From Candidatus Saccharimonadota bacterium (GTDB lineage Bacteria; Patescibacteriota; Gracilibacteria; BD1-5; UBA2023), in the NCBI GenBank assembly GCA_963706795.1, contig OY970170.1:870001-902000 (forward strand): a DNA stretch of 32,000 nt, read 5' to 3'. Made by a program: the position numbers and the translations under genes. Below the pieces are notes generated by a model, which saw only the letters and a program-made list of their open reading frames with translations, searched no databases and had not been told where the DNA came from. Positions within the stretch are counted from its first letter, which is position 1. Each line of letters begins with the position of its first letter. Positions 1-28,470 of this stretch are shown here, piece by piece.

Positions 1-217
1 TTGCCTTTCCACCTTCGGTGAGAGCTTTTGTTCCGCAGCAGGCAAGGTGGTTCTTGAGGAGTTCGCGATTTGCACTCTGCAATAGACCCATGGACGCGTT
101 GATCTGGTGGGCGATATCGGCACAGTACACGTCATTCTCGATCATTTCTTGAACTTTTGCAAGTGTGCCCAGTGCTTTCTTGATGCTGAGATTTATCCGA
201 TCTTTGTTGTGAAGCAT
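1..217 (-). CDS. csoR: CsoR/RcnR-family (DUF156) metal-sensing transcriptional repressor; C-terminus cut by window edge
   Basis: Reverse-strand ATG at 215-217. Translation MLHNKDRINLSIKKALGTLAKVQEMIENDVYCADIAHQINASMGLLQSANRELLKNHLACCGTKAL... shows the family helical pattern. It has a C32/H57/C61 triad with the 25/4 spacing of the Cu(I) C-H-C ligands of CsoR. Absent from the ORF track because it runs off the window. Confidence 0.7.
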   Translation of the reverse strand, partial: MLHNKDRINLSIKKALGTLAKVQEMIENDVYCADIAHQINASMGLLQSANRELLKNHLACCGTKALTEGGKA

Positions 218-310
218 ATTGAAATATAAATTGAAAACCCCTATGGTTTGAGTATCCTCGATAAGCTTTTTAGCGAAAGTAGCTCCCGAAAGGGAGCTTT
301 TTATGTGCGA

Positions 311-394
311 CTACTTGTTGCCGCATGCGCATCCAGAACCGCAAGAACAAGTCTCGCAGGTACATGGATTGCATGTGCATTTTTCTGTTTTCAT
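311..394 (-). CDS. 27-aa cysteine-rich peptide with four CxC motifs (metallothionein-like)
   Basis: Reverse-strand ATG 392-394 to TAG 311-313. Translation is MKTEKCTCNPCTCETCSCGSGCACGNK (8 Cys in 27 aa, as CTC, CTC, CSC, CAC). It lies directly upstream of csoR on the same strand, with a palindromic operator-like site between its putative -10 and start. Too short for the ORF track. Confidence 0.45.
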   Translation of the reverse strand: MKTEKCTCNPCTCETCSCGSGCACGNK

Positions 395-415
395 AGATAG
401 CTTGTTGAGAATACC

Positions 416-434
416 TAACCATAGGGTATGGTTA
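416..434. promoter_or_regulatory. Perfect 8-3-8 palindrome TAACCATA-GGG-TATGGTTA, candidate CsoR-family operator
   Basis: Lies 22-40 nt upstream of the Cys-rich peptide ATG, just downstream of a minus-strand TTGCAA-16-TAAAGT promoter-like pair. A degenerate copy sharing the 10-mer CCCTATGGTT sits at 237-255, upstream of csoR. Confidence 0.45.
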
Positions 435-526
435 CTTTAGGGTTTATTAGATTGATTGCAAAAGATTTTTGTTGTGAGTGTGAGTGATTTGAGAATCAAT
501 TAAATTATGCGTATTTTTTTAAAGAA

Positions 527-552
527 CCCCCTCTTCTGTATAGAAGAGGGGG
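527..552 (-). terminator. Intrinsic terminator of the 578..985 gene
   Basis: Perfect 11-bp stem CCCCCTCTTCT / AGAAGAGGGGG with a 4-nt loop, 25 nt after the TAA. The minus-strand tail is TTCTTTAAAAAAA. Confidence 0.65.
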
Positions 553-577
553 TTGAGTGAGGGGATATATTAATTTG

Positions 578-1421: not shown

Positions 1422-1471
1422 GTTTTGGTAGAGTGTTTATAATAAAAATCCTTCATATGTCAAAATAACTC
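1422..1471 (-). promoter_or_regulatory. Promoter module copy B (minus strand TTGACA-17-TATAAA) for 1180..1401
   Basis: Paralogous to 1015..1064. The -35 is the reverse complement of 1459-1464, the -10 of 1436-1441. Confidence 0.5.
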
Positions 1472-1558
1472 TCATTTTACTTTGGAGTTACGCTTTTGAT
1501 TTTGAATAGGTTTTCTGGCTCATATACTTCACACACGTTTTGCATCACTCCCATTTTT

Positions 1559-3316
1559 ATGTCGGAATTTTTGAAGATTGTACAGAGGATTATGCAGCCA
1601 ACATTTGCAATTGGGTATCGAGTCTGGATCCATATTGTATATCGATTTGTAGTGGCTATCTCGGCAATACTCATTGCTCAAATACTGGGGCGTATTACTC
1701 AGGCTATTGCAGTACGCGCATCCTTTGATGTTATAGTGAGCATTGGAATTGAGGCTTTTGCGATTATTGTGCTAAATCTCGTGATACTTGGGATTATGGT
1801 CTATTTCAACGCAACACAGATGGATGTGAGTGTACGAGCATCGAGAGTAATTCGTCAACAACTCTTAGAATCATATTTCAAAAAAGAGCTTTCGCTTCAG
1901 ACTCCAACTGGCAAGGTACTTACTATTTTTGAGAATGGCATCAGTTCATGGCTTACACTCTCTAATCGTGCGGTAATTGATGATCCATTCGGTATCGTCA
2001 CCTTTTTTATTGGTTTTGGATATCTGATATATACAGACATTGGTCTTATGCCTATTGCACTTGGATATATGGCCGTCGTTGCACTCATATCCCACTTTGT
2101 ACAAATTAAGGTTCAACCACTGCGTGAAGAACGTCGTAAGGCTAAAGAAGATGGTGGTCGAGTTTTTGTACGCGCGATCATGGAAAAAGCTACGGCACTT
2201 ATGAATGGCGCTTTTGAATACGAACTCTGACGACTGAGTCAGGCAAGTAGCCGAGTCGTATTTGCCACTCAAAAAGTCGCTGCGATTACCACTCCATGAT
2301 ATAGACTTCCTGGGTATATTCTCGATGCAGTAAGGATACTTACAACCCTTTTCTTGGCGTATAGAGTATCGCAAGGAACTGCAAATATAGGAGATATCGT
2401 AACAGTTGGACTCGTATTTGTGATCCTCGATAGTTATTTTGGTCGACTACTTGATTCGTATCAAATATACACGGACGAATATATTACACTCCAGAGACTG
2501 TGGAATTTTTTGGATACAATCCCAAATTTTGAGCGACTCACAAAAGGGAATGTTTTTGTTTCGAAAAATAGCGATATCGTATTTGATCATGTAAATTTTA
2601 CATATCTTGGCATCGAGACTCCTACGATTAAAGATATTTCGTGTGTCTTTCCAGCAGGGAAGAAGACTGCACTTGTTGGGCGCAGTGGAGCAGGGAAATC
2701 TACGATTATGAAGATGATTCTGGGTCTCTTGCTTCCAGATAATGGAAAGCTCATGGTTGATGAGCAAGATCTCTCTAAAATCAGGCTCGATTCGTATTTT
2801 CCATATATTGGTTATCTCCCACAAGATCCGTCCGTCTTTGACGGAACTATCCGAGAAAATCTCATATATGGAATCGTAACTGAACACACAGATGCCGAGC
2901 TCAAGCAAGCACTTGAGTATGCAAAGTGTGACTTTGTAGAATCTATGAAAGACTGACTCGATACCGAAATTTGAGAGCGCTGAATCCGCCTCTCTGGCTG
3001 AGAGCGTCAACGACTCGCGATTGCTCGTATATTCCTTCGAAATCCAGAGATTCTCATACTTGATGAACCGACTTCGGCATTGGATTCATTTTCTGAGGCG
3101 GCTATTACAGAGGCGCTTCATGAGCTCTTTAAGGGTAAAACAGTCATTGTGGTTGCACATCGATTACAAACCGTCAAAGAAGCAGATAGAATATTTGTAC
3201 TCAAGGCTGGTTCTATCATCGAACAAGGAACACATGATTCGCTACTTGCGTTTGACGGTGAATATGCTCATATGGTTGATCTTCAGAGCGGAAATATGAT
3301 TGAGTATTCGTCGTAA
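1559..3316 (+). CDS. ABC transporter, fused permease/ATPase (exporter type), 585 aa
   Basis: Track ORFs 1496..2230, 2354..2956 and 3080..3316 share one frame and join through six TGA codons (2228, 2297, 2954, 2972, 2981, 2999). Walker A GRSGAGKST, signature LSG[TGA]ERQR, Walker B ILILDEPTSALD, H-loop VVAHRL. Start at ATG 1559 (MSEFLKIV); stop TAA. Confidence 0.9.
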
Positions 3317-3333
3317 GTAGCGCACATCCTCCT

Positions 3334-3675
3334 ATGTCACTCAATACTTCGGGTAAAGTTACCCACTATAATCCAGACAAAAAGAACTCTCCTGATCAGG
3401 AGATATTTATGGAGCGCGCTAGAGACGGATTTTACGCCGTTCTTACAGATGAAGGCATCAGATTAACTGATCGAGAAACCACTGTACATATCATCAAAAA
3501 TGGCCGACATCAATTGGTCCATCGGCTTGATGAAAAAACTTTCGGCCTTATGGTGTATTTCCTACAAGCTACTCATGGAAAGATTCTGACTCACTGGCTA
3601 AAACACAAATTTGAGACAGGGGATTTTGCAGCTATAGAACGCGCATACGGCATATCATTTAGGCGGAAGAATTAA
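3334..3675 (+). CDS. Hypothetical protein, 113 aa
   Basis: Intact ORF 17 nt after the ABC gene stop; no SD; TAA stop. No family recognised. Confidence 0.45.
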   Translation: MSLNTSGKVTHYNPDKKNSPDQEIFMERARDGFYAVLTDEGIRLTDRETTVHIIKNGRHQLVHRLDEKTFGLMVYFLQATHGKILTHWLKHKFETGDFAAIERAYGISFRRKN

Positions 3676-3698
3676 AAAAACGCCCTCAAATGAGGACG
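3674..3698 (-). terminator. Intrinsic terminator downstream of 3722..4018
   Basis: Minus strand reads CGTCCTC-ATTT-GAGGGCG followed by seven T (3674-3680), starting 24 nt after the TGA at 3722-3724. Confidence 0.65.
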
Positions 3699-3721
3699 TT
3701 GGAAGCCACAGTGATAATCTT

Positions 3722-4018
3722 TCATTGCTGAACAAAGTAATGATTATCGAAAGGGGATCGTGGAGTGGCTGGTATTTTTGCCAGTTGAAAGGGAGTGTTT
3801 TGTCCTTCGGTATTTGTTTGTTTGGGGACCACCTCCAATTGGAGGCATCTTCCTGTTTTGATCCACAGCGGCGTACCATCACGAACTTCTACTTGCACGA
3901 AGTAATCTTGGATGATTTCCGGAGAGATGTTCGTATCAACGTTATGAGCAAGAAGAATGGCTTCTGCTTCTACTGTAGTAAACGTTTCGGGTAAAGCGGA
4001 TTGTGTTGTAGTGCACAT
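3722..4018 (-). CDS. Hypothetical protein, 98 aa to the TGA; 119 aa (to TAA at 3659) if TGA is read as Gly
   Basis: Start taken at the Met preceded by GGAAGGAATACAGC (SD), giving MCTTTQSALPETF... The ORF ends on TGA followed by a canonical terminator. Under table 25 it would run on through that hairpin to 3659. No family recognised. Confidence 0.45.
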   Translation of the reverse strand: MCTTTQSALPETFTTVEAEAILLAHNVDTNISPEIIQDYFVQVEVRDGTPLWIKTGRCLQLEVVPKQTNTEGQNTPFQLAKIPATPRSPFDNHYFVQQ

Positions 4019-4093
4019 GCTGTATTCCTTCCAAAGGGTTGATTTTTGTTTTACCACTGAAATCTTCGAATATCGAAAACTTCAGAGTGAAAC

Positions 4094-4123
4094 AAAAACC
4101 CCTCTCGTACGAGAGGGGTTTTT
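4094..4123. terminator. Bidirectional intrinsic terminator
   Basis: 20-nt perfect palindrome CCCCTCTCGTACGAGAGGGG (4099-4118), flanked by AAAAA and TTTTT. Confidence 0.7.
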
Positions 4124-4260
4124 GACAGCGAAAATTACGCACTGATCAAAATCTCCTCTCGGACCGAGCGGAACATTGAACAGAAACGAATGTGTGAAGT
4201 GCTGTAAATCATGAATCCTAAAATAGGAATATTTGAATCTTTGTCAAAGAGAATTTGCTT

Positions 4261-5031
4261 TTAGTGGTGACTACCGTGGCTGTGATCGTCGTGTCCATGG
4301 TCGTCGTGTCCTAAATCGAGATCAAAATCTGCCATGCCATGCTCATCGTGTGAAGTCTCATGTCCATGGTCTTCGTGCGCATTGCTAGAAGCATTTTTGT
4401 CTTTCAGTGATTTGAGCCAAGCAATCAGTGCTACCATGAGAGTTGCCACCATTTCAGCAAAGAGGAGTTTGTAGAGCATGAAAAATACCCCAAACAGCAC
4501 AATGGGTTGGATATGTCGACCAATCCAACCCATAATCTTGGTAGCCTGTAGACTGTGATAGAGATCCGTTTTACCAAGCAGAGTAAATCCTGTGTCGATC
4601 CCAAAGATATATGTCTTACTTGCAAAGCCCATCACGAGTGCTGTCATAAAGACAAGAAGCGCTATTGCGAGCAAAAAATGACTCGCGATTCTTAGAATAA
4701 GATTCTTGGGATAGGGGATTTTAATACCACCAGAGATCGGTGTAAGAATCATCAAAATAAATATCAAATACACCGATGAACCCACCAAAAAATTAGAAAC
4801 TCCAGGACTAAAAAATTTAACCGTATCAGCTGTCTGATATTGTGGTGCAAGCAGTACTGTGAGCATCAAATAGATCGCAAGACCGACAACGAGTCCAAAA
4901 AATACCTCATAGGTTTTTTGTATTCCGATCGCCAAAAATACCACAAATAACACAAATCCCACCGCGAGGATATGAACATCCATCGGCGTAACTTGAAGCA
5001 GAGTGGCGATCTTGAGAATTATTTCGTTCAT
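4261..5031 (-). CDS. Multi-pass membrane protein with His/Asp-rich C-terminal tail (putative metal binding)
   Basis: 256-aa ORF with several hydrophobic segments. The tail is SSNAHEDHGHETSHDEHGMADFDLDLGHDDHGHDDHSHGSHH. TAA stop. Its start is overlapped by the end of pepF. Confidence 0.6.
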   Translation of the reverse strand: MNEIILKIATLLQVTPMDVHILAVGFVLFVVFLAIGIQKTYEVFFGLVVGLAIYLMLTVLLAPQYQTADTVKFFSPGVSNFLVGSSVYLIFILMILTPISGGIKIPYPKNLILRIASHFLLAIALLVFMTALVMGFASKTYIFGIDTGFTLLGKTDLYHSLQATKIMGWIGRHIQPIVLFGVFFMLYKLLFAEMVATLMVALIAWLKSLKDKNASSNAHEDHGHETSHDEHGMADFDLDLGHDDHGHDDHSHGSHH

Positions 5032-6824
5032 GCAACGGTGTTGGCGAGCGCTTCAAATTCTGTAACTTTACGTTCTACTTCTCAGAGTCCGAGTTGGTAA
5101 AATTCGGGCTTAGTAATATCAAATCCGTACTGCGCGAGGAGTTCTTTTGGTCGTACTGATCCACCGGCTCGGAGGATATTTTTGTAGTCGGCGATAAATG
5201 ATTTACCTTCTTTGCGGTAACGATCATAGAGCGCAAATACGAGCAAATGACCAAATGCGTATGCGTAGCAGTAAAATGGCGAATTAAAAATATGTGGAAT
5301 CGTCGCCCATCCGATTTCTTCCTCGGCTGGCACATCATAGGTTATCGAATCTCCACTCATTTTCATCTGCTCAGAACGCCACAGAGTATTGAGATCATGG
5401 TAGGTGAGCTCTTTGCCGCTATGGATCATCTCATGCGCCTTTCGCTCAAAGAGTACATATTGGATCTGTCGGAAAATCGACGAAAACGCATCGAAGAGTT
5501 CATTTGAGAGGAAATCCGTGTATTCCTCAGGACTGAGTCGTGTTTTGATTTTTTCAGAAAGAAGCATTTCCGAAAAAATTGACGCGGTTTCTGCAAGACA
5601 AAGACTGCTGCCATACACGCTATCTCGTTGTACCTGAGAAAGATGTCCATGAATCGCGTGTCCAAGTTCGTGAGAAAGTGTCGGAACATCGGCGAGTTTT
5701 CCTGTGTAATTAAGCAGCACAAAACTTGGCTCATCCTTGCTATAACTTGCAAAAGCACCGCCACGCTTTCATTTTTTTGGAGTCGCGTCTACACGACCAT
5801 TCTCGAACATGTCGATGGAATACGTATAAAATTCCTCATCGAAGTCTTTCATGGTATCGAGGTGGAGCCTCAGCCCTTCCTCAAGTGGCATGGGAGTTTC
5901 ATGATTGCTGATTGGAGCGAAGACGTCGTAGTTCATCATAGTATCGAGTCCTAAAATCTTCTGCTTCGCCTTGATATAGCGAGCATAGAGGGGATAGGCC
6001 TTCTCGATTTCGTTCATGAGTAGGTCGACGACTTCGTTATCGAGTTCTTCGGAGAGATTGCGAGGCTCCATGACGGTCGCATAATCTCGGAGTGTGATCT
6101 TGGTTGACCAGTCTTTGACGATACCAGTATAGCAATTACCAAGGGCGATCTGAATCGTCTTCGAAAGATAGACTTTGCGAATAGATTCGAAGGCCTTCAT
6201 GCGCGTTTGTCGGTCAGGTGACTCGCGGAGCATGCGGATTTCTGAATCCGTGAGAAATTTGATTTTGCCGTCTTCTTCAAACTCAAATTCAAAACTGCCG
6301 ACGAGTTCATCATGGAGAGAATTCGCGAGCGAAAGTGGGCGAGATTTTACATTGAGGACGTATTCTTCACGTTCTGTGAGGATGCGTTTAATGGATTCGG
6401 CAGTGCTTACGAGTGCATTTGCGTGTGGCACCAAAAGCGGATCGTGGCTCCATGTCATCAGTGTCTCATATCCGAGAGACTTCCAAGCCTGTGAGACAAA
6501 AAGAAGACGATTACTGACTTCGATAAAAATCGACTGCATTTCGCCTTGTTGCTTGATGACTTCGGCATTTTGAGTATCGAGACTCTCGAGGTATGAGAGA
6601 TAGTACGCGGGTTTTGTGAGTTTTTTGCTCAGCGCTTCATCCTCATCAAAAAAGGCCGCGAGCTCGCTTGGCTGGGTAAACTTCCCAAGAATTGGTTCAT
6701 ATTTGCGTGCAAATTCGTCTACAAGTGGCAGTATTGCAGCGATATCGGTAATAAATTTTGGATCGTCGAGTCCAGTATAGTAATAACGGGAGAGGTCCCA
6801 TTTAGTTTTGATGGTCGGTTGCAT
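5019..6824 (-). CDS. pepF: Oligoendopeptidase F (M3B metallopeptidase), 601 aa
   Basis: Track ORFs 5769..6824 and 5082..5720 share one frame and join via TGA 5769-5771. The frame continues through TGA 5082-5084 and 5028-5030 to TAA 5019-5021. Contains the HELGH zinc motif and the KRGGAF segment spanning the junction. Confidence 0.85.
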
Positions 6825-6941
6825 GAAGAGAAAAGCATGAAGAGTGAAGATTCTACGATGCTCCTGTAAAATTGCAATGGGAAGGCTTTTCTTTGGGTAT
6901 GATCGAGTTGCAAAATGCGTAATATTTCGTAGAGTTTGCGC

Positions 6942-8414
6942 ATGTCGTTGTACTTAGATTATCGCCCAAAGGACTTTGATTCGCTTCATGGTCAGACTTT
7001 TGTAAAGGAAGCGCTTTTAAACGCGCTCCGTTCCGGTCGCACTGTCGGAGCGTATTTATTTCATGGCTCTCGCGGAACAGGGAAGACCACGGTCGCCCGC
7101 ATTTTAGCGAAGGCTTTTAATTGTCTCGATCTTCGATCAGATGGGAATCCATGTGGCAATTGTGCTAATTGTCGAGCATTCGACGAAGCTCGTATGCTCG
7201 ACATTATTGAGATCGATGCCGCCTCAAATACCGGAGTCGACAACATTCGTGAGATGATCGAAAAAGCGCAATTCCAACCAAATGAAGGGAAATATAAAGT
7301 CTATATCATAGACGAGGTGCATATGCTCTCAAAGGGTGCATTTAATGCCCTCCTCAAAACACTCGAAGAGCCCCCAGCTCATGTAAAATTTATCCTCGCG
7401 ACTACCGAAATCCATCGTATTCCTGAGACGATTATTTCGCGTTCTCAGCGCTATGATTTCCGTAGAATTACTGAAGCGGATATCATGTCACGTCTCTGAT
7501 TTATCGCCCAAAACGAAAAAATCGATGCCGAAGAATCCGGTCTGGAACTCATTGCAAAACTAGCAAAATGAGGGCTTCGTGATGCGATCTCACTCTTTGA
7601 ACAATACGCAATTGGTGGAGTGCTTCGCAAAAAGTTTATCGAAGAAAATCTCGCTCTAGTAGGTGAAGGATTCCTCTCGGATTTCCTCGCAGCACTTGCT
7701 AATAAAGATGCTGTTCGAGTACTCGAAAAACTCGCCGATCTCAAACTCCGATCGATCGAAGCTCGCAGATTTTTTGATGAGCTCTTGTTCTTTATGCGAG
7801 ATCGTCTCGTTGAAGCGCTCTCTACGCCTCATTTTGCGACCTATGAGCGCATTTTTAGAGCATTCGAATGAGCATATGGGAAGCTCAGAGATTTCCCAGA
7901 GCCGTTTTTGCTCCTTGAGATTACGAGCCTCTCACTCGTAAATGTTTCGTCTGTTATGGCACATTCGGATGTGCCACTTCGCGCTCCTGTAGCCGAGTCC
8001 AAGCCAGTGCCCCGCAAAGAAGCTCCTGTGGCAGAAAAGATCATCGAAGAAATCGAATACGTTGTTGCTCCTGTAGTCACTCAAGTGCCAGAGTCACTTC
8101 CAGAAGCTCCGAGTTCGTCAGGAATATCGACTGATTTTGATCTTCTTGCGCTCATAAACCATGTGAAGACTCAGCCTGGCAAAGGATTCGTTTTGGCGGC
8201 GCTCAAAAATGGAGATTTCACGTTGGGTGACAATACGATTACATTTGGCTGTTCAAGCGAATTCGAGCGCAAAAAACTCGATACACCAGAGATTCAGAGT
8301 TTTCTCTGAGAGTCTATTGAACTGCTTTTTGGGATGAATCCAAGCATTGCCTTTAGTCTCTCTAAAAAGAAAAAAGTCACTCTGGAAGCTCACGAAGTCG
8401 CCGATATATTTTAA
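6942..8414 (+). CDS. dnaX: DNA polymerase III subunit gamma/tau, 490 aa
   Basis: ORFs 6936..7499, 7620..7871 and 7908..8309 share one frame and join via TGA at 7497, 7569, 7869 and 8307; stop TAA 8412-8414. Walker A GSRGTGKTT, Zn module CGNCANC, IIDEVHMLS. AK[TGA]GLRDA matches the conserved GG(S/L)RDA box. Confidence 0.9.
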
Positions 8415-22951: not shown

Positions 22952-24590
22952 AGATGCTCGCCTTGTTATAGACAATCGCCTCGATATTGCCGAAATCATG
23001 GCCATGATTTCGGGTGTTTCTGAGTCGATTGTTACGCTCGAGCTCGTAGGACATACTGCGCTTCATCAGTATTTTTCACTCAAGTTCCTCCTCTCTCGAT
23101 TTCCGAGCAAAAAATTCCAGATTGTTTCGAGCGACAAAGATTTGAGACGAATTGGCGAAGGACTTGGAATTCGATTTTTTTCAAAGAGCGATAATATCGA
23201 GTTCGAAGAATCCTACTCCAAAGAGCATATTCTGCGCCACAACTTTACGTTTTTTGAGTATTTCCTCTACGAAATCCGCAAAGTGGTCTATCGCATGGCC
23301 TACATGTTCGAAAAGAAGCGTTCGCGACATCACACATATAAAAATGCTTCGTTTCTTGCGGATTCGAATGTCTTTTTGCTCTTTGCTGGACTTGTGCTCT
23401 CGATCTCGCTTTTGATATTTATATTCTATTTTGCGGTTTCTAAGACTTACGTCTCGATTACCCCAGACTTTGTAGTCAAGACCGTATCGCAAAATCTCAT
23501 TTTTCAAGAGAGTGATTATCAGTCAGTTCTCGATACGCGTGCGATTGTCCCAGTTCGCAAGGTCGAACACACTGCAAGCATCGATTTTGCCTTTAATGTC
23601 TCGACATTTGATCTCGCGAGTGTGCGTGCTGCAAAGTGATCGGTCGAAGTCTTCAATGAGCTCCCAAATGAGCAAGTTTTCCGTCCGAATACCCGTTTTG
23701 TGACACAGGATGGCCTCGTGTATCGCTCACAAGAATGGATTAAAATCCCAGCAATACGAAGTGATTCTGGAGCGGTAAATATTGGACGAACGACCTCGAC
23801 GCTTATAGCTGATGGCTACGATACCAAGGGCGAACTTATCGGAGTTCGTGGGAATATTCCTGAAGCGACACTGCTTGATATTCCTGGTCTCAAATTTAAT
23901 CGCGACAAGATCTACGCAAAAGTCTCAAAAGGCTTTACTGGTGGACAAAATCCAACGGTACATGTACTGACGGAAGACGAACTCAAAAAATTTAAGGCTA
24001 TTCTCGTTGATAAACTTCGATCTGCCGCGCTCGATGGACTCAAAGACGACCTCGCAAAATCCAATGCCGAATCTGGCAAAAATTTTGATATCCTCGATAT
24101 TCCTGAAAATATCCGCTACTCTGAGCCGGTGATTGAGATTGCAAATGGCGTAAAGGTGGGTGACAAGATCACGGATGTTACGCTCAAGGGTAATCTCAAG
24201 GTAACAACCTACCTCTTTGATCGAGCAGCTGCACTGAGTATTCTTCGTAATCTTATGAATGAGAAGCTCCTCTACGGTACCGAAAAGCTCCATGAGATAC
24301 TCAATGATTCTCTCAAGATCACCAATATTATCAATCGCACCGAGACTCCGCAATTTGCGCTCAAGGGTACAACTGATCTCTCTGCGACGATCTCCTATAA
24401 TTTTGAGGATTCGAGCAATAATCTCACAAAAAAGCTCAAAAATCTCATTGCCGGTCTCTCTATCGATGGCGCAACTTCGGTGCTGCTCAATGACAACAAT
24501 ATTGCAAAGGTAAAGATCCGCCTTTCACCATTCTGGCTGACGCATGTATCGTCGAGTCCTGATAACATCGACTTTATTATTGAGAAGTAA
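22944..24590 (+). CDS. Hypothetical bitopic membrane protein, 548 aa, translationally coupled to ftsA
   Basis: ATG overlaps the ftsA stop by 8 nt (ATGAATAG). ORFs 22944..23639 and 23700..24590 share one frame and join via TGA 23637. Single TM VFLLFAGLVLSISLLIFIFYFAV, with a large C-terminal domain. Confidence 0.6.
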
Positions 24591-24594
24591 CCTC

Positions 24595-25572
24595 ATGTAC
24601 TTCCTCGCTTTTGAAACCTCGTGTGACGATACTTCGGTTGCCCTCTTTGATGGTCCGAAGCTCATTACAATGAGTACAAAAGGACAACTCAAAGAACACA
24701 ATGAGACACAATGAGTCGTCCCTGAAGTTGCTGCCCGCCTCCATGCAAACGCGATTTTTGAAGTACTCGAAGAAGTTCTCCAAAAATGAAATGTCGAACT
24801 CTCTGATATCGAATTCATAGCCTGTACCAGACAGCCAGGGCTTCTCCCATCTCTTTTGGTAGGGCGCACGGTCGCAAAGACACTTGCTCATACTCTTGGT
24901 AAAGAAGTGCTCTGGATTGATCACATTGAATCCCATATTTTTGCAAATCTCCTCGAACGAGATCTCTCAGACATAGCATTTCCAATCGTCTGCCTCACGG
25001 TTTCTGGCGGGCACAATGAGCTCTATTTCTGGAAGAGTCTCTTTGAATTAGAGCTCCTTGGTCAAACTCGCGACGATGCAGCAGGGGAGGCCTTCGACAA
25101 GATCTCAAAAGCCATGGGAATGAGTTTCCCAGGCGGACCTGAGATTGCAAAGCTTGCGAGCGAGTGGCAGAGACAATATGCTGGCATGTTCCCAATCGCA
25201 CTACTCGATGAGGGGAGTCTCGATTTTTCGTTTTCTGGACTCAAAAGCGCAGTCAAGCGAGAGATTGATGTACGGATAGCACTTCGATCAGAGCTGACGC
25301 TTGATGACAAGCGAGAGATTGCCTACGAGTTTGAACAGGCAGTGGTTCGCACGCTTACGGCAAAGCTCTTTCGGGCTGCAAAATCCAAAGGGGTAAATAC
25401 TGTTTTGCTTGCAGGATGAGTCAGTGCGAATGATGTGCTTCGGTCGCAGATCGCACTCGAGGCGCAAAAACTCGGAATGCATTTTGTTTCTCCTGTGAGT
25501 AAACTCTATAGCATGGATAATGCGGCCATGGTTGGAATGCGTGCCTACTACGAATGGAAGCGCTTTCATTAA
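24595..25572 (+). CDS. tsaD: tRNA N6-adenosine threonylcarbamoyltransferase TsaD (Kae1/Gcp), 325 aa
   Basis: MYFLAFETSCDDTSVAL; Q[TGA]VVPEVAARLH (conserved GGVVPE); SGGHNELY; LAG[TGA]VSAN. TGA at 24712, 24787 and 25417; TAA stop at 25570. Confidence 0.9.
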
Positions 25573-26834: not shown

Positions 26835-27767
26835 ATGGGTCAACCAACCGCAGAAGTTCAAAAACTGATCGATGCAGCAAAAGCGAGTGAGTATGCAGGC
26901 TATTACGCACATCCAGAATCATGGGGGGATGAGAATCATTTTATTCTTAGTCCTGATAATGAATCATTTGTGGATATGGAATACTGCAAGCTTCAAACGC
27001 ATGTTCTCAATACCGGTACATATAAAGCTGATCGTACTGGCACGGGCACGCTGTCTGTGTTTGGCTATCAGATGCGCCTTGATCTGGACAAAGGTTTCCC
27101 TCTGCTGACGACCAAAAAAGTGCATCTGAAATCTATTGTCCACGAGCTCATTTGGTTTTTGGCGGGTTCTACCAATATCAAATACCTCAAGGATAACGGC
27201 GTCTCCATCTGGGATGAATGGGCTGATGAAAATGGTGATCTGGGGCCGGTCTATGGTTCTCAGTGGCGCAATTGGCCAACACCAGGCGGTGGACATATCG
27301 ATCAAATCAAACAAGTGATCGACCAAATCCGCAATAATCCTGATTCGCGCCGTCTGATAGTTTCAGCATGGAATGTTGCTGATATTCCACAAATGAAACT
27401 GCCACCATGTCATGCGTTATTTCAGTTTTACGTCGCAGATGGCAAGTTGTCGTGTCAGCTGTATCAACGCAGTGCTGACGTTTTCCTGGGTGTACCTTTT
27501 AATATTGCATCCTATGCTCTGCTGACGATGATGATTGCAAAAATCTGCAATCTCGAACTCGGCGATTTTATCTGGAACGGTGGCGATGTGCATCTGTATG
27601 TCAATCATCTTGAACAGGTGGCAACACAGCTGGATCGTCTGCCGATTCGGGCACCAAAAATGATCATCAAAGATCGTGGTCAAGATATTTTTGGTTTTCA
27701 ATTCTCCGACTTCATCCTCGAAGACTACGATCCTCATCCTGCCATCAAGGCGACAGTGGCGGTCTGA
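26835..27767 (+). CDS. thyA: Thymidylate synthase ThyA (proteobacterial type) with 47-aa N-terminal extension; ends on TGA
   Basis: [84 protein letters not shown], and C-terminus [10 protein letters not shown]. Strong SD AGGAGG. The stop codon is TGA 27765-27767; under table 25 the frame stays open to TAA 27987-27989. Confidence 0.9.
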
Positions 27768-27792
27768 AAGAAATGAAAGAATTGTTGTTTTT

Positions 27793-27835
27793 ACAAAACC
27801 CTCCTTTGCTCTTGTGAGCTTCGGAGGGCTTTTTT
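27793..27835. terminator. Bidirectional terminator between thyA and rlmE; right inverted repeat of the thyA cassette
   Basis: ACAAAA-CCCTCC-TTT-GCTC-TTGT-GAGC-TTC-GGAGGG-CTTTTTT. Confidence 0.7.
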
Positions 27836-27846
27836 ATGGTTTATTC

Positions 27847-28470
27847 CTAGTCTTTTTTACCGAGACAGAGGAAATATTCTTCAAAGCTACGATCGCGGCA
27901 GGCTTCTGGTTTGACGCGTTTGAGGTTTTTGTAGCGCTGCATGATGGGAGTGATGAGCTCTTGGATGTCTTCACCAACAAATACTTTAAGCAGGAGATTG
28001 CCGCCTGGCTTCAGCCATTTGTGGGTAAATTCGAGGATGGCAATATTGAGCTCGATTGAGCGATATTGGTCAACTCCCGTGAGCCCCGTCGTATTTGGTG
28101 CGATATCCGAAGTCACTACATCAAATTGCTCAATCTCGAGCTTCTGACAAAATTGTTCAATCTTTGGCGCATCAAAAATATCCCCCTGAAGTACGCGGAT
28201 ATTTTGCTGTCCAAATGGCTTGATCTTTTGGATATCAACTCCAGCGACGACTCCTTCTGGTCCAATAATTTTGGAGATCACTTGGAGGAAGCTACCAGGC
28301 GCGGATGCTACATCGAGAACTTTCATTCCAGGCTCGATGATCTTAAAACGATCCTGGATTTCTATGAGCTTGAATGCGCTGCGTGCTCGGTATCCGAGCT
28401 TCTTCGCTTCAAAAAACCACTTGTCTTGGACAACATATTGTCCTGTACCTTTTTTCTTTTTCGTTGACAC
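27847..28470 (-). CDS. rlmE: 23S rRNA (uridine2552-2'-O)-methyltransferase RlmE/FtsJ
   Basis: 207 aa with a GTG start. Contains RSAFKLIEI, the SAM motif VLDVASAPGSFLQV, and DIAPNTTG. Confidence 0.85.
   Translation of the reverse strand: MSTKKKKGTGQYVVQDKWFFEAKKLGYRARSAFKLIEIQDRFKIIEPGMKVLDVASAPGSFLQVISKIIGPEGVVAGVDIQKIKPFGQQNIRVLQGDIFDAPKIEQFCQKLEIEQFDVVTSDIAPNTTGLTGVDQYRSIELNIAILEFTHKWLKPGGNLLLKVFVGEDIQELITPIMQRYKNLKRVKPEACRDRSFEEYFLCLGKKD

Follow-up and report, generated by a model that had tools for sequence, protein, structure and literature searches.

A csoR-linked mini-gene of Gracilibacteria probably encodes a very small copper metallothionein

In Mycobacterium tuberculosis the CsoR paralogue RicR controls the copper metallothionein MymT together with the oxidase MmcO, lpqS and other genes (PMC4801387; PMC7558416). 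The canonical type-2 operator of CsoR proteins is a TAC-N9-GTA sequence around G-tracts, to which two tetramers are bound (PMC3902906), and cytosolic metal buffering by cysteine-based bacterial proteins has been described for SmtA/BmtA and Csp (PMC7558416). The bacterial metallothioneins (MTs) covered by a 2020 review of copper homeostasis were the SmtA type and MymT only (PMC7558416), and in the literature we found no link between Gracilibacteria, or bacteria of the candidate phyla radiation (CPR), and either metallothionein or CsoR. Here we describe a 32,000 nucleotide (nt) stretch of contig OY970170.1 (the window, whose numbering is used unless another locus is named), in which a truncated csoR gene and, 5′ of it, a cysteine-rich open reading frame (ORF) of 27 codons lie on the minus strand near the left edge. 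This short ORF, referred to as the mini-ORF, probably encodes a new, very small bacterial copper metallothionein, and we consider it rather probable that the locus is a Cu(I)-derepressed operon whose first and strongest product would be a minimal, MT-like copper buffer.

The mini-ORF (394..311, minus) ends in a TAG stop and has an in-frame TAA upstream at 439–437. As originally predicted, its 27 amino acid (aa) product, MKTEKCTCNPCTCETCSCGSGCACGNK, contains eight cysteines (30%) in four CxC pairs; Phe, Trp, Tyr and His are absent and there is no signal peptide. This composition fits the operational definition of an MT used here (low mass, about 30% Cys in CxC, CxxC or CC arrangements, no aromatics or His), and so does that of most homologues, a few longer ones having one Tyr or His. 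Relatives were collected with the full-length CsoR (P0001) as a query against species-representative genomes, giving 36 Gracilibacteria-type loci (labelled L0xx), the closest of which all come from metagenome-assembled genomes (MAGs) titled Candidatus Gracilibacteria or Peribacteria. A mini-ORF of 24–37 aa was present in 22 of the 36, on the csoR strand and 78–190 nt (mostly around 95 nt) 5′ of csoR. The homologues follow the pattern M-x(1-6)-(C-x-C-x-x)n...C-x-C or CC, with approximately three to six CxCxx units each and a constant register.

Codon usage was analysed across 20 distinct core DNA sequences of the mini-ORF. All six core cysteine codons toggle between TGT and TGC, with the one exception of a proline codon in L010. 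Third codon positions vary in 13 of 13 cases, compared with eight first and seven second positions, and the mean pN/pS is 0.34. In L010 and L019 an in-frame TGA is aligned with glycine codons of the other peptides, which supports both genetic code 25 (TGA read as Gly) and translation of the mini-ORF. A chance ORF is excluded by this codon-level conservation, and the mini-ORF is, on the pattern of substitution, a real gene under protein-level selection, kept in frame and in Cys register at the 22 loci as the original prediction implied.

The peptide gave no match to Pfam or NCBIfam at E ≤ 1, and a profile built from 15 of the peptides found nothing in the PDB at E ≤ 10. A profile search (51-aa first row) of 5.8 billion proteins returned 21 word-sharing candidates and nothing at E ≤ 0.001. 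Standard gene callers have a length limit of about 90 nt, and the prediction that they would miss the gene agrees with the absence of nine out of ten exact peptide sequences from a collection of 15 billion proteins; the tenth occurs there as an artefactually extended, unnamed 51-aa call. Judged by these searches, the peptide stands outside all described MT families. Copper-binding natural products derived from Cys-containing precursors exist, and a small Cys-rich ORF could be taken for the precursor of a ribosomally synthesised and post-translationally modified peptide (RiPP), such as a thioether or thiazole product or a chalkophore. We regard this as scarcely probable at all, since genes for a maturase, radical-SAM enzyme, cyclodehydratase or exporter are not consistently found beside it and no leader/core organisation is seen within the 24–27 residues.

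The repressor gene csoR (217..1, minus) is cut by the left edge of the window, leaving the first 72 of 90 codons (MLHNKDRINLSIKKALGTLAKVQEMIENDVYCADIAHQINASMGLLQSANRELLKNHLACCGTKALTEGGKA); the full-length protein P0001 has 90 aa and ends in ...CCGTKALTEGGKAKEDFIDELVRTWDVVTRK. The 72-aa fragment matches PF02583 (CsoR/RcnR, DUF156) with 55 bits against a cutoff of 22.8 (E = 1e-14), and the same family is assigned to P0001 and to every homologue. RicR is the top NCBIfam match, yet far under the cutoff of that model. The closest solved structures are the Cu(I) CsoRs 2HH7 (M. tuberculosis), 4ADZ (S. lividans) and 4M1P (G. thermodenitrificans), and alignment to 2HH7 places C32, H57 and C61 opposite C36, H61 and C65 of the M. 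tuberculosis protein, with a Cys at the start of α2 and His-x3-Cys 25 residues on. These three residues are the candidate Cu(I) ligands; Y31 and C60 are also present in the 72-aa translation. The Y-C...H-x3-C arrangement and FI[DE]EL are kept in P0001 and some 40 relatives. Across 35 translated relatives Y31-C32, H57-x3-C61 and FI[DE]EL are invariant; H3 and C60 vary, C60 being replaced by S, H, T or K in many. Because H3 is not conserved, the fingerprint is x-C-H-C and not the H-C-H-C or H-C-H-H of nickel sensors, and a nickel-sensor reading, suggested by H3, was rejected. The N-terminus of P0001 is presumably also three residues shorter than that of RcnR. For the second shell, which in Cu(I) CsoRs couples metal binding to DNA release, Y31 is the candidate Tyr, and the candidate for the α3 Glu is D75, which phmmer sets opposite E81 of the M. 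tuberculosis protein, or E79 if FI[DE]EL is placed on IEEL by eye; in both registers an acidic residue is at hand. The repressor is thus a member of the CsoR family with a complete Cu(I) ligand set: the C-H-C spacing previously read from the truncated gene is present and is retained in the 90 residues of P0001. Cu(I) would be the expected effector.

Genes of copper export and detoxification are linked to csoR in the related loci. Downstream of csoR are found a CopA-type P1B ATPase with an HMA domain together with DUF6803 (L029), a multicopper oxidase (L009), CusB/HlyD-like proteins (L007 and others), HMA-DsbD_2-cupredoxin (L015 and L005) and a DUF305 protein (L021), and in L032 and L034 an HMA (CopZ-like) gene fills the slot of the mini-ORF. 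The upstream neighbours differ at every locus and only the linkage to csoR is kept. The CsoRs fall into about three subclades, two of which include loci with a mini-ORF.

This neighbourhood bears on the possibility that the signal is a sulfur species (such as persulfide or reactive sulfur) or another thiophilic metal (such as Zn, Cd, Ag or Ni), which the peptide would then buffer. Persulfide sensors of the CstR type and TTHA1953 belong to the CsoR family (PMC8643695; PMC10318464), many relatives have a vicinal C60-C61 pair, and MT-type peptides also bind Zn and Cd. However, C60 is not conserved, and H57, the His that CstR-type sensors do not have, is invariant. With Cu(I) CsoRs as the best solved relatives and copper-specific neighbour genes (CopA with HMA, multicopper oxidase, CopZ, cupredoxin), a signal other than copper appears distinctly improbable.

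The remainder of the operon was followed in L039, a Logan contig that shares 1110 identical nt with the window and continues for around 830 nt beyond its left edge. Twelve nt after csoR it encodes a membrane protein of 160 aa that matches DUF6962 weakly, followed by a 65-aa Cys-rich single-pass membrane protein (1690–1890) and a terminator; the transmembrane segment of the 65-aa protein resembles that of the L021 protein. In L086 and L093 (7760–8100), both recovered by the CTCNPCTC pattern scan described below, the operator and csoR precede a membrane protein with an MT-like N-terminal domain, CNNPNCTCENCTCNPCTC (the L093 stretch, when scanned, gave no Pfam match), and a similar Cys-rich N-terminus is carried by the DUF305 single-pass membrane protein of L021 (4735–5373). 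In these operons, then, the Cys-rich module is found in the form of a protein domain as well.

Such an arrangement would also suit a role in place of CopZ, the peptide being a copper chaperone or hand-off factor from which an exporter, the membrane proteins or CsoR itself would receive Cu(I). The mini-ORF slot is identical to that of the CopZ-like HMA gene in L032 and L034, the operon of the window runs on into two membrane proteins, and in L093 and L021 a membrane protein bears an MT-like domain. Eight cysteines in CxC pairs are, however, of the multi-ion cluster type and unlike a single MxCxxC site, and a range of three to six CxC units fits a capacity rather than a docking surface; we consider a chaperone role unlikely and retain the copper buffer as the preferred reading.

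A further motif, MREHCK(M/T)MP(E/N)M.GCE, was noted near csoR in L009 (5949–7517), L003 (4221–4976), L021 (4735–5373) and L093, within proteins that are otherwise unlike each other (multicopper oxidase, MauE-like protein, DUF305 protein). It may represent a shared Met/Cys copper-binding module. One locus of typical mini-ORF–csoR layout, L011 (JBPOIP010000073.1, 79% CsoR identity), is on a contig labelled “Pseudomonadota bacterium” and is probably mis-binned.

The mini-ORF promoter (434..461, minus) comprises a −35 hexamer TTGCAA (461–456), a 16-nt spacer and a −10 hexamer TAAAGT (439–434), as originally proposed. With 8 of 12 consensus positions it is below the threshold of the promoter scanner (at least 9 of 12) and so was not listed; it was accepted because relatives share its architecture, TTGCtt-16/17-TAnnnT with the operator abutting. 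Their −35 element is TTGC(t/a)(t/a) and their −10 element is A/T-rich and lies directly before the operator. In the window the operator (411..434, unstranded) reads TAACCATACCCTATGGTTAGGTAT on the gene strand, begins at the final base of the −10 element and spans the predicted transcription start. Its core (418–432), ACCATACCCTATGGT, is invariant; across loci the invariant core is ACCATACC(C/A)TATGGT, the flanks carrying little information, and the motif in pattern form is ACCATACCNTATGGT. The strict pattern ACCATACC-N4-GGT occurs as a single copy in 34 of the 36 loci and as a single copy in the window. A best-match search located the operator in all loci, upstream of the first gene and in fixed register to the −35 and −10 elements, and a relaxed search of the 32 kb revealed no further copy better than chance. 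Where the mini-ORF is missing, the operator is found 4–70 nt before csoR, or before the HMA gene (L032 and L034).

Two overlapping dyads are present within the operator. The first (416–434), originally described as a perfect 19-bp palindrome, is in fact TAACCATA-GGG-TATGGTTA, a perfect 8-bp inverted repeat (8+3+8) around an asymmetric 3-bp centre; across loci it reads ACCATA-N3-TATGGT within the invariant core, lengthened to 8+3+8 where a mini-ORF is present. Its conservation at orthologous loci, at a fixed position after the −10 element, was confirmed. The second dyad (413–432 in the window) is ACCATACC-N4-GGTTAGGT, its centre offset by 2.5 bp from that of the first; across loci it takes the form ACCATACC-N4-GGTATGGT and becomes a perfect 20–24-bp palindrome in several loci that have no mini-ORF (L005, L034, L035). 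The symmetry scores of the two are equal (0.64 and 0.65). Inverted repeats with 8-bp arms arose in about 5% of dinucleotide shuffles of the 700-nt region; the significance of the palindrome in a single sequence is modest, and its conservation over 36 related loci is strong evidence. The canonical CsoR site TAC-N9-GTA was looked for in the operator and not found, a mismatch that concerns the label “canonical type-2 site” and not the family membership of the protein. CsoR would be expected to bind at 411–434 and to repress.

Some genomes have two csoR loci (L005/L008, L010/L034 and L012/L037). L005 and L008 lie on one contig, 7.4 kb apart, and encode CsoRs of around 96% identity; in one of the two the mini-ORF accompanies the GGTTAGGT variant of the operator, and in the other a perfect palindrome goes with an HMA-DsbD_2 gene. 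Since near-identical CsoRs stand behind both operator variants, these are probably bound alike. Linkage was also seen in a separate metagenome scan with a DNA pattern coding for CTCNPCTC, in which csoR was not used as a query: three Gracilibacteria-type loci were recovered, the operator being present in all three and csoR lying 96 nt downstream in two. In the third, L103 (reverse complement, approximately 3290–4130), an insertion sequence with inverted ends AGGCTCTTGCCTAGGA and a transposase-like ORF is located exactly at the expected csoR start, with the operator, mini-ORF, hairpins and second conserved site intact; L103 is possibly a naturally occurring csoR knock-out.

The spacer between the mini-ORF and csoR is itself conserved. 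Directly 5′ of csoR is a block (218..258, minus) that holds a half-operator, AACCATAGGG (239–248), and the degenerate second operator copy anticipated before csoR amounts to an exact 10-nt match, CCCTATGGTT (239–248) being the exact reverse complement of 417–426. In all mini-ORF-bearing loci the block reads AGTATAyyGAAAtCATAGGGtTTTTCAATATAAT. On the sense strand it contains a putative promoter, CTGAAA-16-TATAAT in relatives and CTCAAA-18-TATATT in the window, which ends 7 and 5 nt, respectively, before the csoR ATG; a promoter this near to the ATG would imply a leaderless or near-leaderless csoR mRNA. The half-operator CATAGGG lies within the spacer of this promoter. In S. lividans, CsoR binding to a half-site alone was not detectable (PMC3902906). 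The plus strand of the block carries a promoter-like TTGAAA (231–236)-16-TATCCT (253–258), corresponding to TTGAAA-16-TATAyT in relatives.

Two tandem hairpins (262..298, minus) separate the mini-ORF from this block. Hairpin 1, AGCTCCC-TTTC-GGGAGCT (281–298), is preceded by an A-tract, and hairpin 2 (around 262–280) is small. The A-tract with hairpin 1, hairpin 2 and the conserved block are all three found in every mini-ORF locus, and the hairpins recur in divergent loci with differing stems (CCCGCGG../CCCACGG../CTCTTGT../CCTCCCGG..). An Rfam scan of 1–1200 gave sub-threshold noise only, with no family for the hairpins, and from the MAFFT-aligned spacers, whose hairpin sequences are too divergent to align, RNAalifold yielded just three pairs, so per-sequence folds were used. 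The hairpins are probably an mRNA 3′ stabiliser or partial terminator. On the plus strand TTTTAT comes after hairpin 1, which there resembles a canonical terminator, the hexamers and the terminator orientation being conserved in relatives, and an antisense RNA of around 45 nt from this strand (231–304 region) is possible. The 5′ boundary of the module is set by the terminator hairpin (525..554, minus) of the upstream neighbour gene (578–1078, minus), a 13-bp perfect inverted repeat that was also picked up as a terminator-like site on the minus strand. In one relative, L033, a tRNA-Cys(GCA) gene (3910–3983) is located between the Cys-rich mini-ORF and csoR.

A short ORF followed by two conserved hairpins and a gene recalls a leader peptide, whereby Cys-tRNA supply would set read-through of the hairpins into csoR and the Cys-rich peptide itself would be functionless; the tRNA-Cys gene in the L033 spacer could be cited in its favour. 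No alternative anti-terminator pairing is evident, however, and hairpin 1 has no U-tract on the sense strand. Moreover, the residues between the cysteines are conserved together with the CxCxx register, the slot is interchangeable with copZ, the motif also exists as a domain fused to a membrane protein, and there is no logical reason for cysteine supply to govern csoR. We judge a leader peptide to be very improbable and return to the copper buffer.

Taken as an operon, the order would be promoter, operator, 27-aa peptide gene, two hairpins, csoR and two small membrane-protein genes. At low copper, apo-CsoR, by analogy as tetramers, would occupy the operator at 411–434, abutting the −10 element and covering the start, and the operon would be off. 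As Cu(I) rises it would be coordinated between two subunits, through C32 of the first and H57/C61 of the second, and CsoR would leave the DNA. The short first cistron would then be strongly transcribed, and its product, acting as a minimal metallothionein or copper buffer, could gather several Cu(I) ions into a cluster of thiolates; that the peptide binds Cu(I) is suggested by its CxC pairs and its setting. The hairpins after the mini-ORF would probably keep peptide mRNA well above csoR mRNA. The csoR gene seemingly has a weak promoter of its own with a half-operator in the spacer, and would be co-induced as feedback. The parts suggested here for the hairpins and the second site are tentative. 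Overall, the original interpretation of a copper CsoR with an MT-like peptide module is largely supported, Cu(I) binding and repression being its inferred elements.

Several points weigh against this interpretation. There is no copA in the visible part of the operon of the window, which shows two membrane proteins only, and 14 of the 36 csoR loci have no mini-ORF. The TAC and GTA triplets of the operator are 6 or 11 bp apart and its C/G runs are 2–3 bp, with no fit to a type-2 site. Persulfide sensing or control of sulfur oxidation is known for CsoR-family proteins whose motifs are similar (PMC8643695; PMC10318464), and the metal specificity of these proteins is not readable from sequence alone. 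No homology of the peptide to MymT, to SmtA or to entries of Pfam, NCBIfam or the PDB could be detected, and the label “metallothionein” is owed to composition and context only.

The window uses genetic code 25: under the standard code most large genes are split at TGA, and readthrough of TGA restores the ABC exporter, PepF, DnaX, RadA, photolyase, RlmN and TsaD. TGA falls on conserved glycine positions (# in LSG#ERQR, #ER#IRLSG, LAG#VSAN and KK#KRGGAF), and genes with in-frame TGA include 1469–3316, 5019–6953, 6933–8414, 24514–25572 and others. Code 25 is the usage of Gracilibacteria and Absconditabacteria, and a CPR origin is confirmed. The source contig measures 1.27 Mb. The module had been called unexpected in a reduced CPR genome; the CPR host stands, from the recoding and the related MAGs, but the module is common across Gracilibacteria and no oddity. 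Under code 25 the TAG that ends the mini-ORF and the in-frame TAA upstream are genuine stops. Neither csoR nor the mini-ORF contains a TGA codon, so both could be expressed in E. coli without recoding. A Shine-Dalgarno sequence is present at only 2 of 17 gene starts in the window, and its absence before csoR and the mini-ORF is therefore normal here.

Two other genes of the window deserve mention. In thyA (26835–27989, plus) the canonical C-terminus ...ATVAV is followed at once by TGA (27765–27767), after which code 25 would add about 74 codons up to a TAA at 27989. The C-terminal carboxylate of thymidylate synthase matters to the enzyme; the gene can be read either as having an unusual C-terminal extension or as using TGA as a stop in that context. 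A multi-pass membrane protein (4261–5031, minus) has a C-terminal tail strongly rich in His and Asp, HEDHGHETSHDEHG...HDDHGHDDHSHGSHH; it gave no Pfam match and no operator was found nearby, and it may be metal-related.

Beyond the Gracilibacteria, unrelated metagenome contigs carry ORFs of 22–45 aa with CTCNPCTC, for example MDPNCSNPNCKCVNCTCNPCTC. Such mini-ORFs were located in L051 (3650–3718), L054, L080, L058, L100, L046, L055, L045, L062, L075, L052, L040, L081 and L102. The mini-ORF of L051 adjoins a YHS-MauE protein, that of L062 an AraC-type regulator with an MxCxxC N-terminus and that of L052 genes for CopA, HMA and PpoB2; those of L040, L055, L081 and L102 are on phage-like contigs. 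This suggests a broader unannotated class of tiny MT-like genes, by a low-complexity likeness and not an established homology. As a tentative and rather doubtful proposal, the present peptide may be the founding regulator-linked case of a wide class of 22–45-aa CxC(N/D)PCxC MT-like peptides in very different prokaryotes, with the spacer perhaps encoding the ~45-nt RNA as a cis-antisense transcript. If so, the peptide would be the smallest bacterial metallothionein known, and the antisense RNA, with a face-to-face promoter pair that shares a CsoR half-site and a terminator in antisense orientation, could set the ratio of peptide to repressor.

A family of 24–37 residues, tied to a copper sensor and kept across a CPR class, would possibly be a third family of bacterial MTs and would widen the current picture. 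It would mean that host-dependent bacteria with genomes of about 1.3 Mb retain a dedicated copper defence, copper buffering evidently being worth keeping for predatory or epibiotic cells poor in other metabolism. The locus also illustrates an annotation gap, in that the gene is under the length limit of gene callers and the same pattern finds similar unannotated mini-ORFs elsewhere. The operator is a defined 24-bp site and could readily be tested.

Compared with described systems, the RicR regulon is similar in its CsoR-family repressor, its small and originally unannotated Cys-rich MT, its palindromic operator and the multicopper oxidase in the same response (here in the relative L009); the two csoR loci of some Gracilibacteria genomes are a further likeness. 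MymT has a length of 53 aa. The Gracilibacteria peptide is half that size (24–37 aa), with regular CxC-xx repeats and no detectable similarity, and its gene opens the csoR operon, whereas mymT belongs to its regulon as a separate gene. Operator sequence and host are also different, the host here being a CPR bacterium with code 25. With the CsoR-copZA systems of B. subtilis, S. lividans, L. monocytogenes and S. aureus, the locus shares the repressor fold, the x-C-H-C ligands, an operator over the promoter, autoregulation and a small cytosolic copper-binding protein in first place. It differs in an AT-rich operator with ACC/GGT triplets 5 bp apart, in contrast to TAC-N9-GTA with G-tracts (PMC3902906), in the replacement of the α1 RLxR by (S/N)-(I/L)-K-K (alignment by eye), and in having a CxC peptide instead of CopZ and no copA among the visible genes.

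The copper MTs of fungi and plants are alike in their size class of around 25 aa, their CxC pairs, the CxCGSGCxC stretch and the CTCNPCTC-type motif, plant MTs having C-terminal CxCxPCxC motifs; plant-type MT sequences were indeed recovered by the same DNA pattern (L059, L067 and L076). The Neurospora crassa Cu-MT has 25–26 aa, a comparison offered as a lead only. There is no statistical homology to these proteins (PDB profile and Pfam MT families), the peptide here being bacterial and under operon control, and the likeness is probably one of low complexity and convergence. SmtA, of about 55 aa, has a zinc-finger-like fold and His ligands, and Csps are four-helix bundles of about 120 aa; the peptide matches neither. 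What is new is a peptide belonging to no described MT family, a variant operator and a code-25 CPR host; what is known is the logic they follow, that of RicR-MymT and CsoR-copZ.

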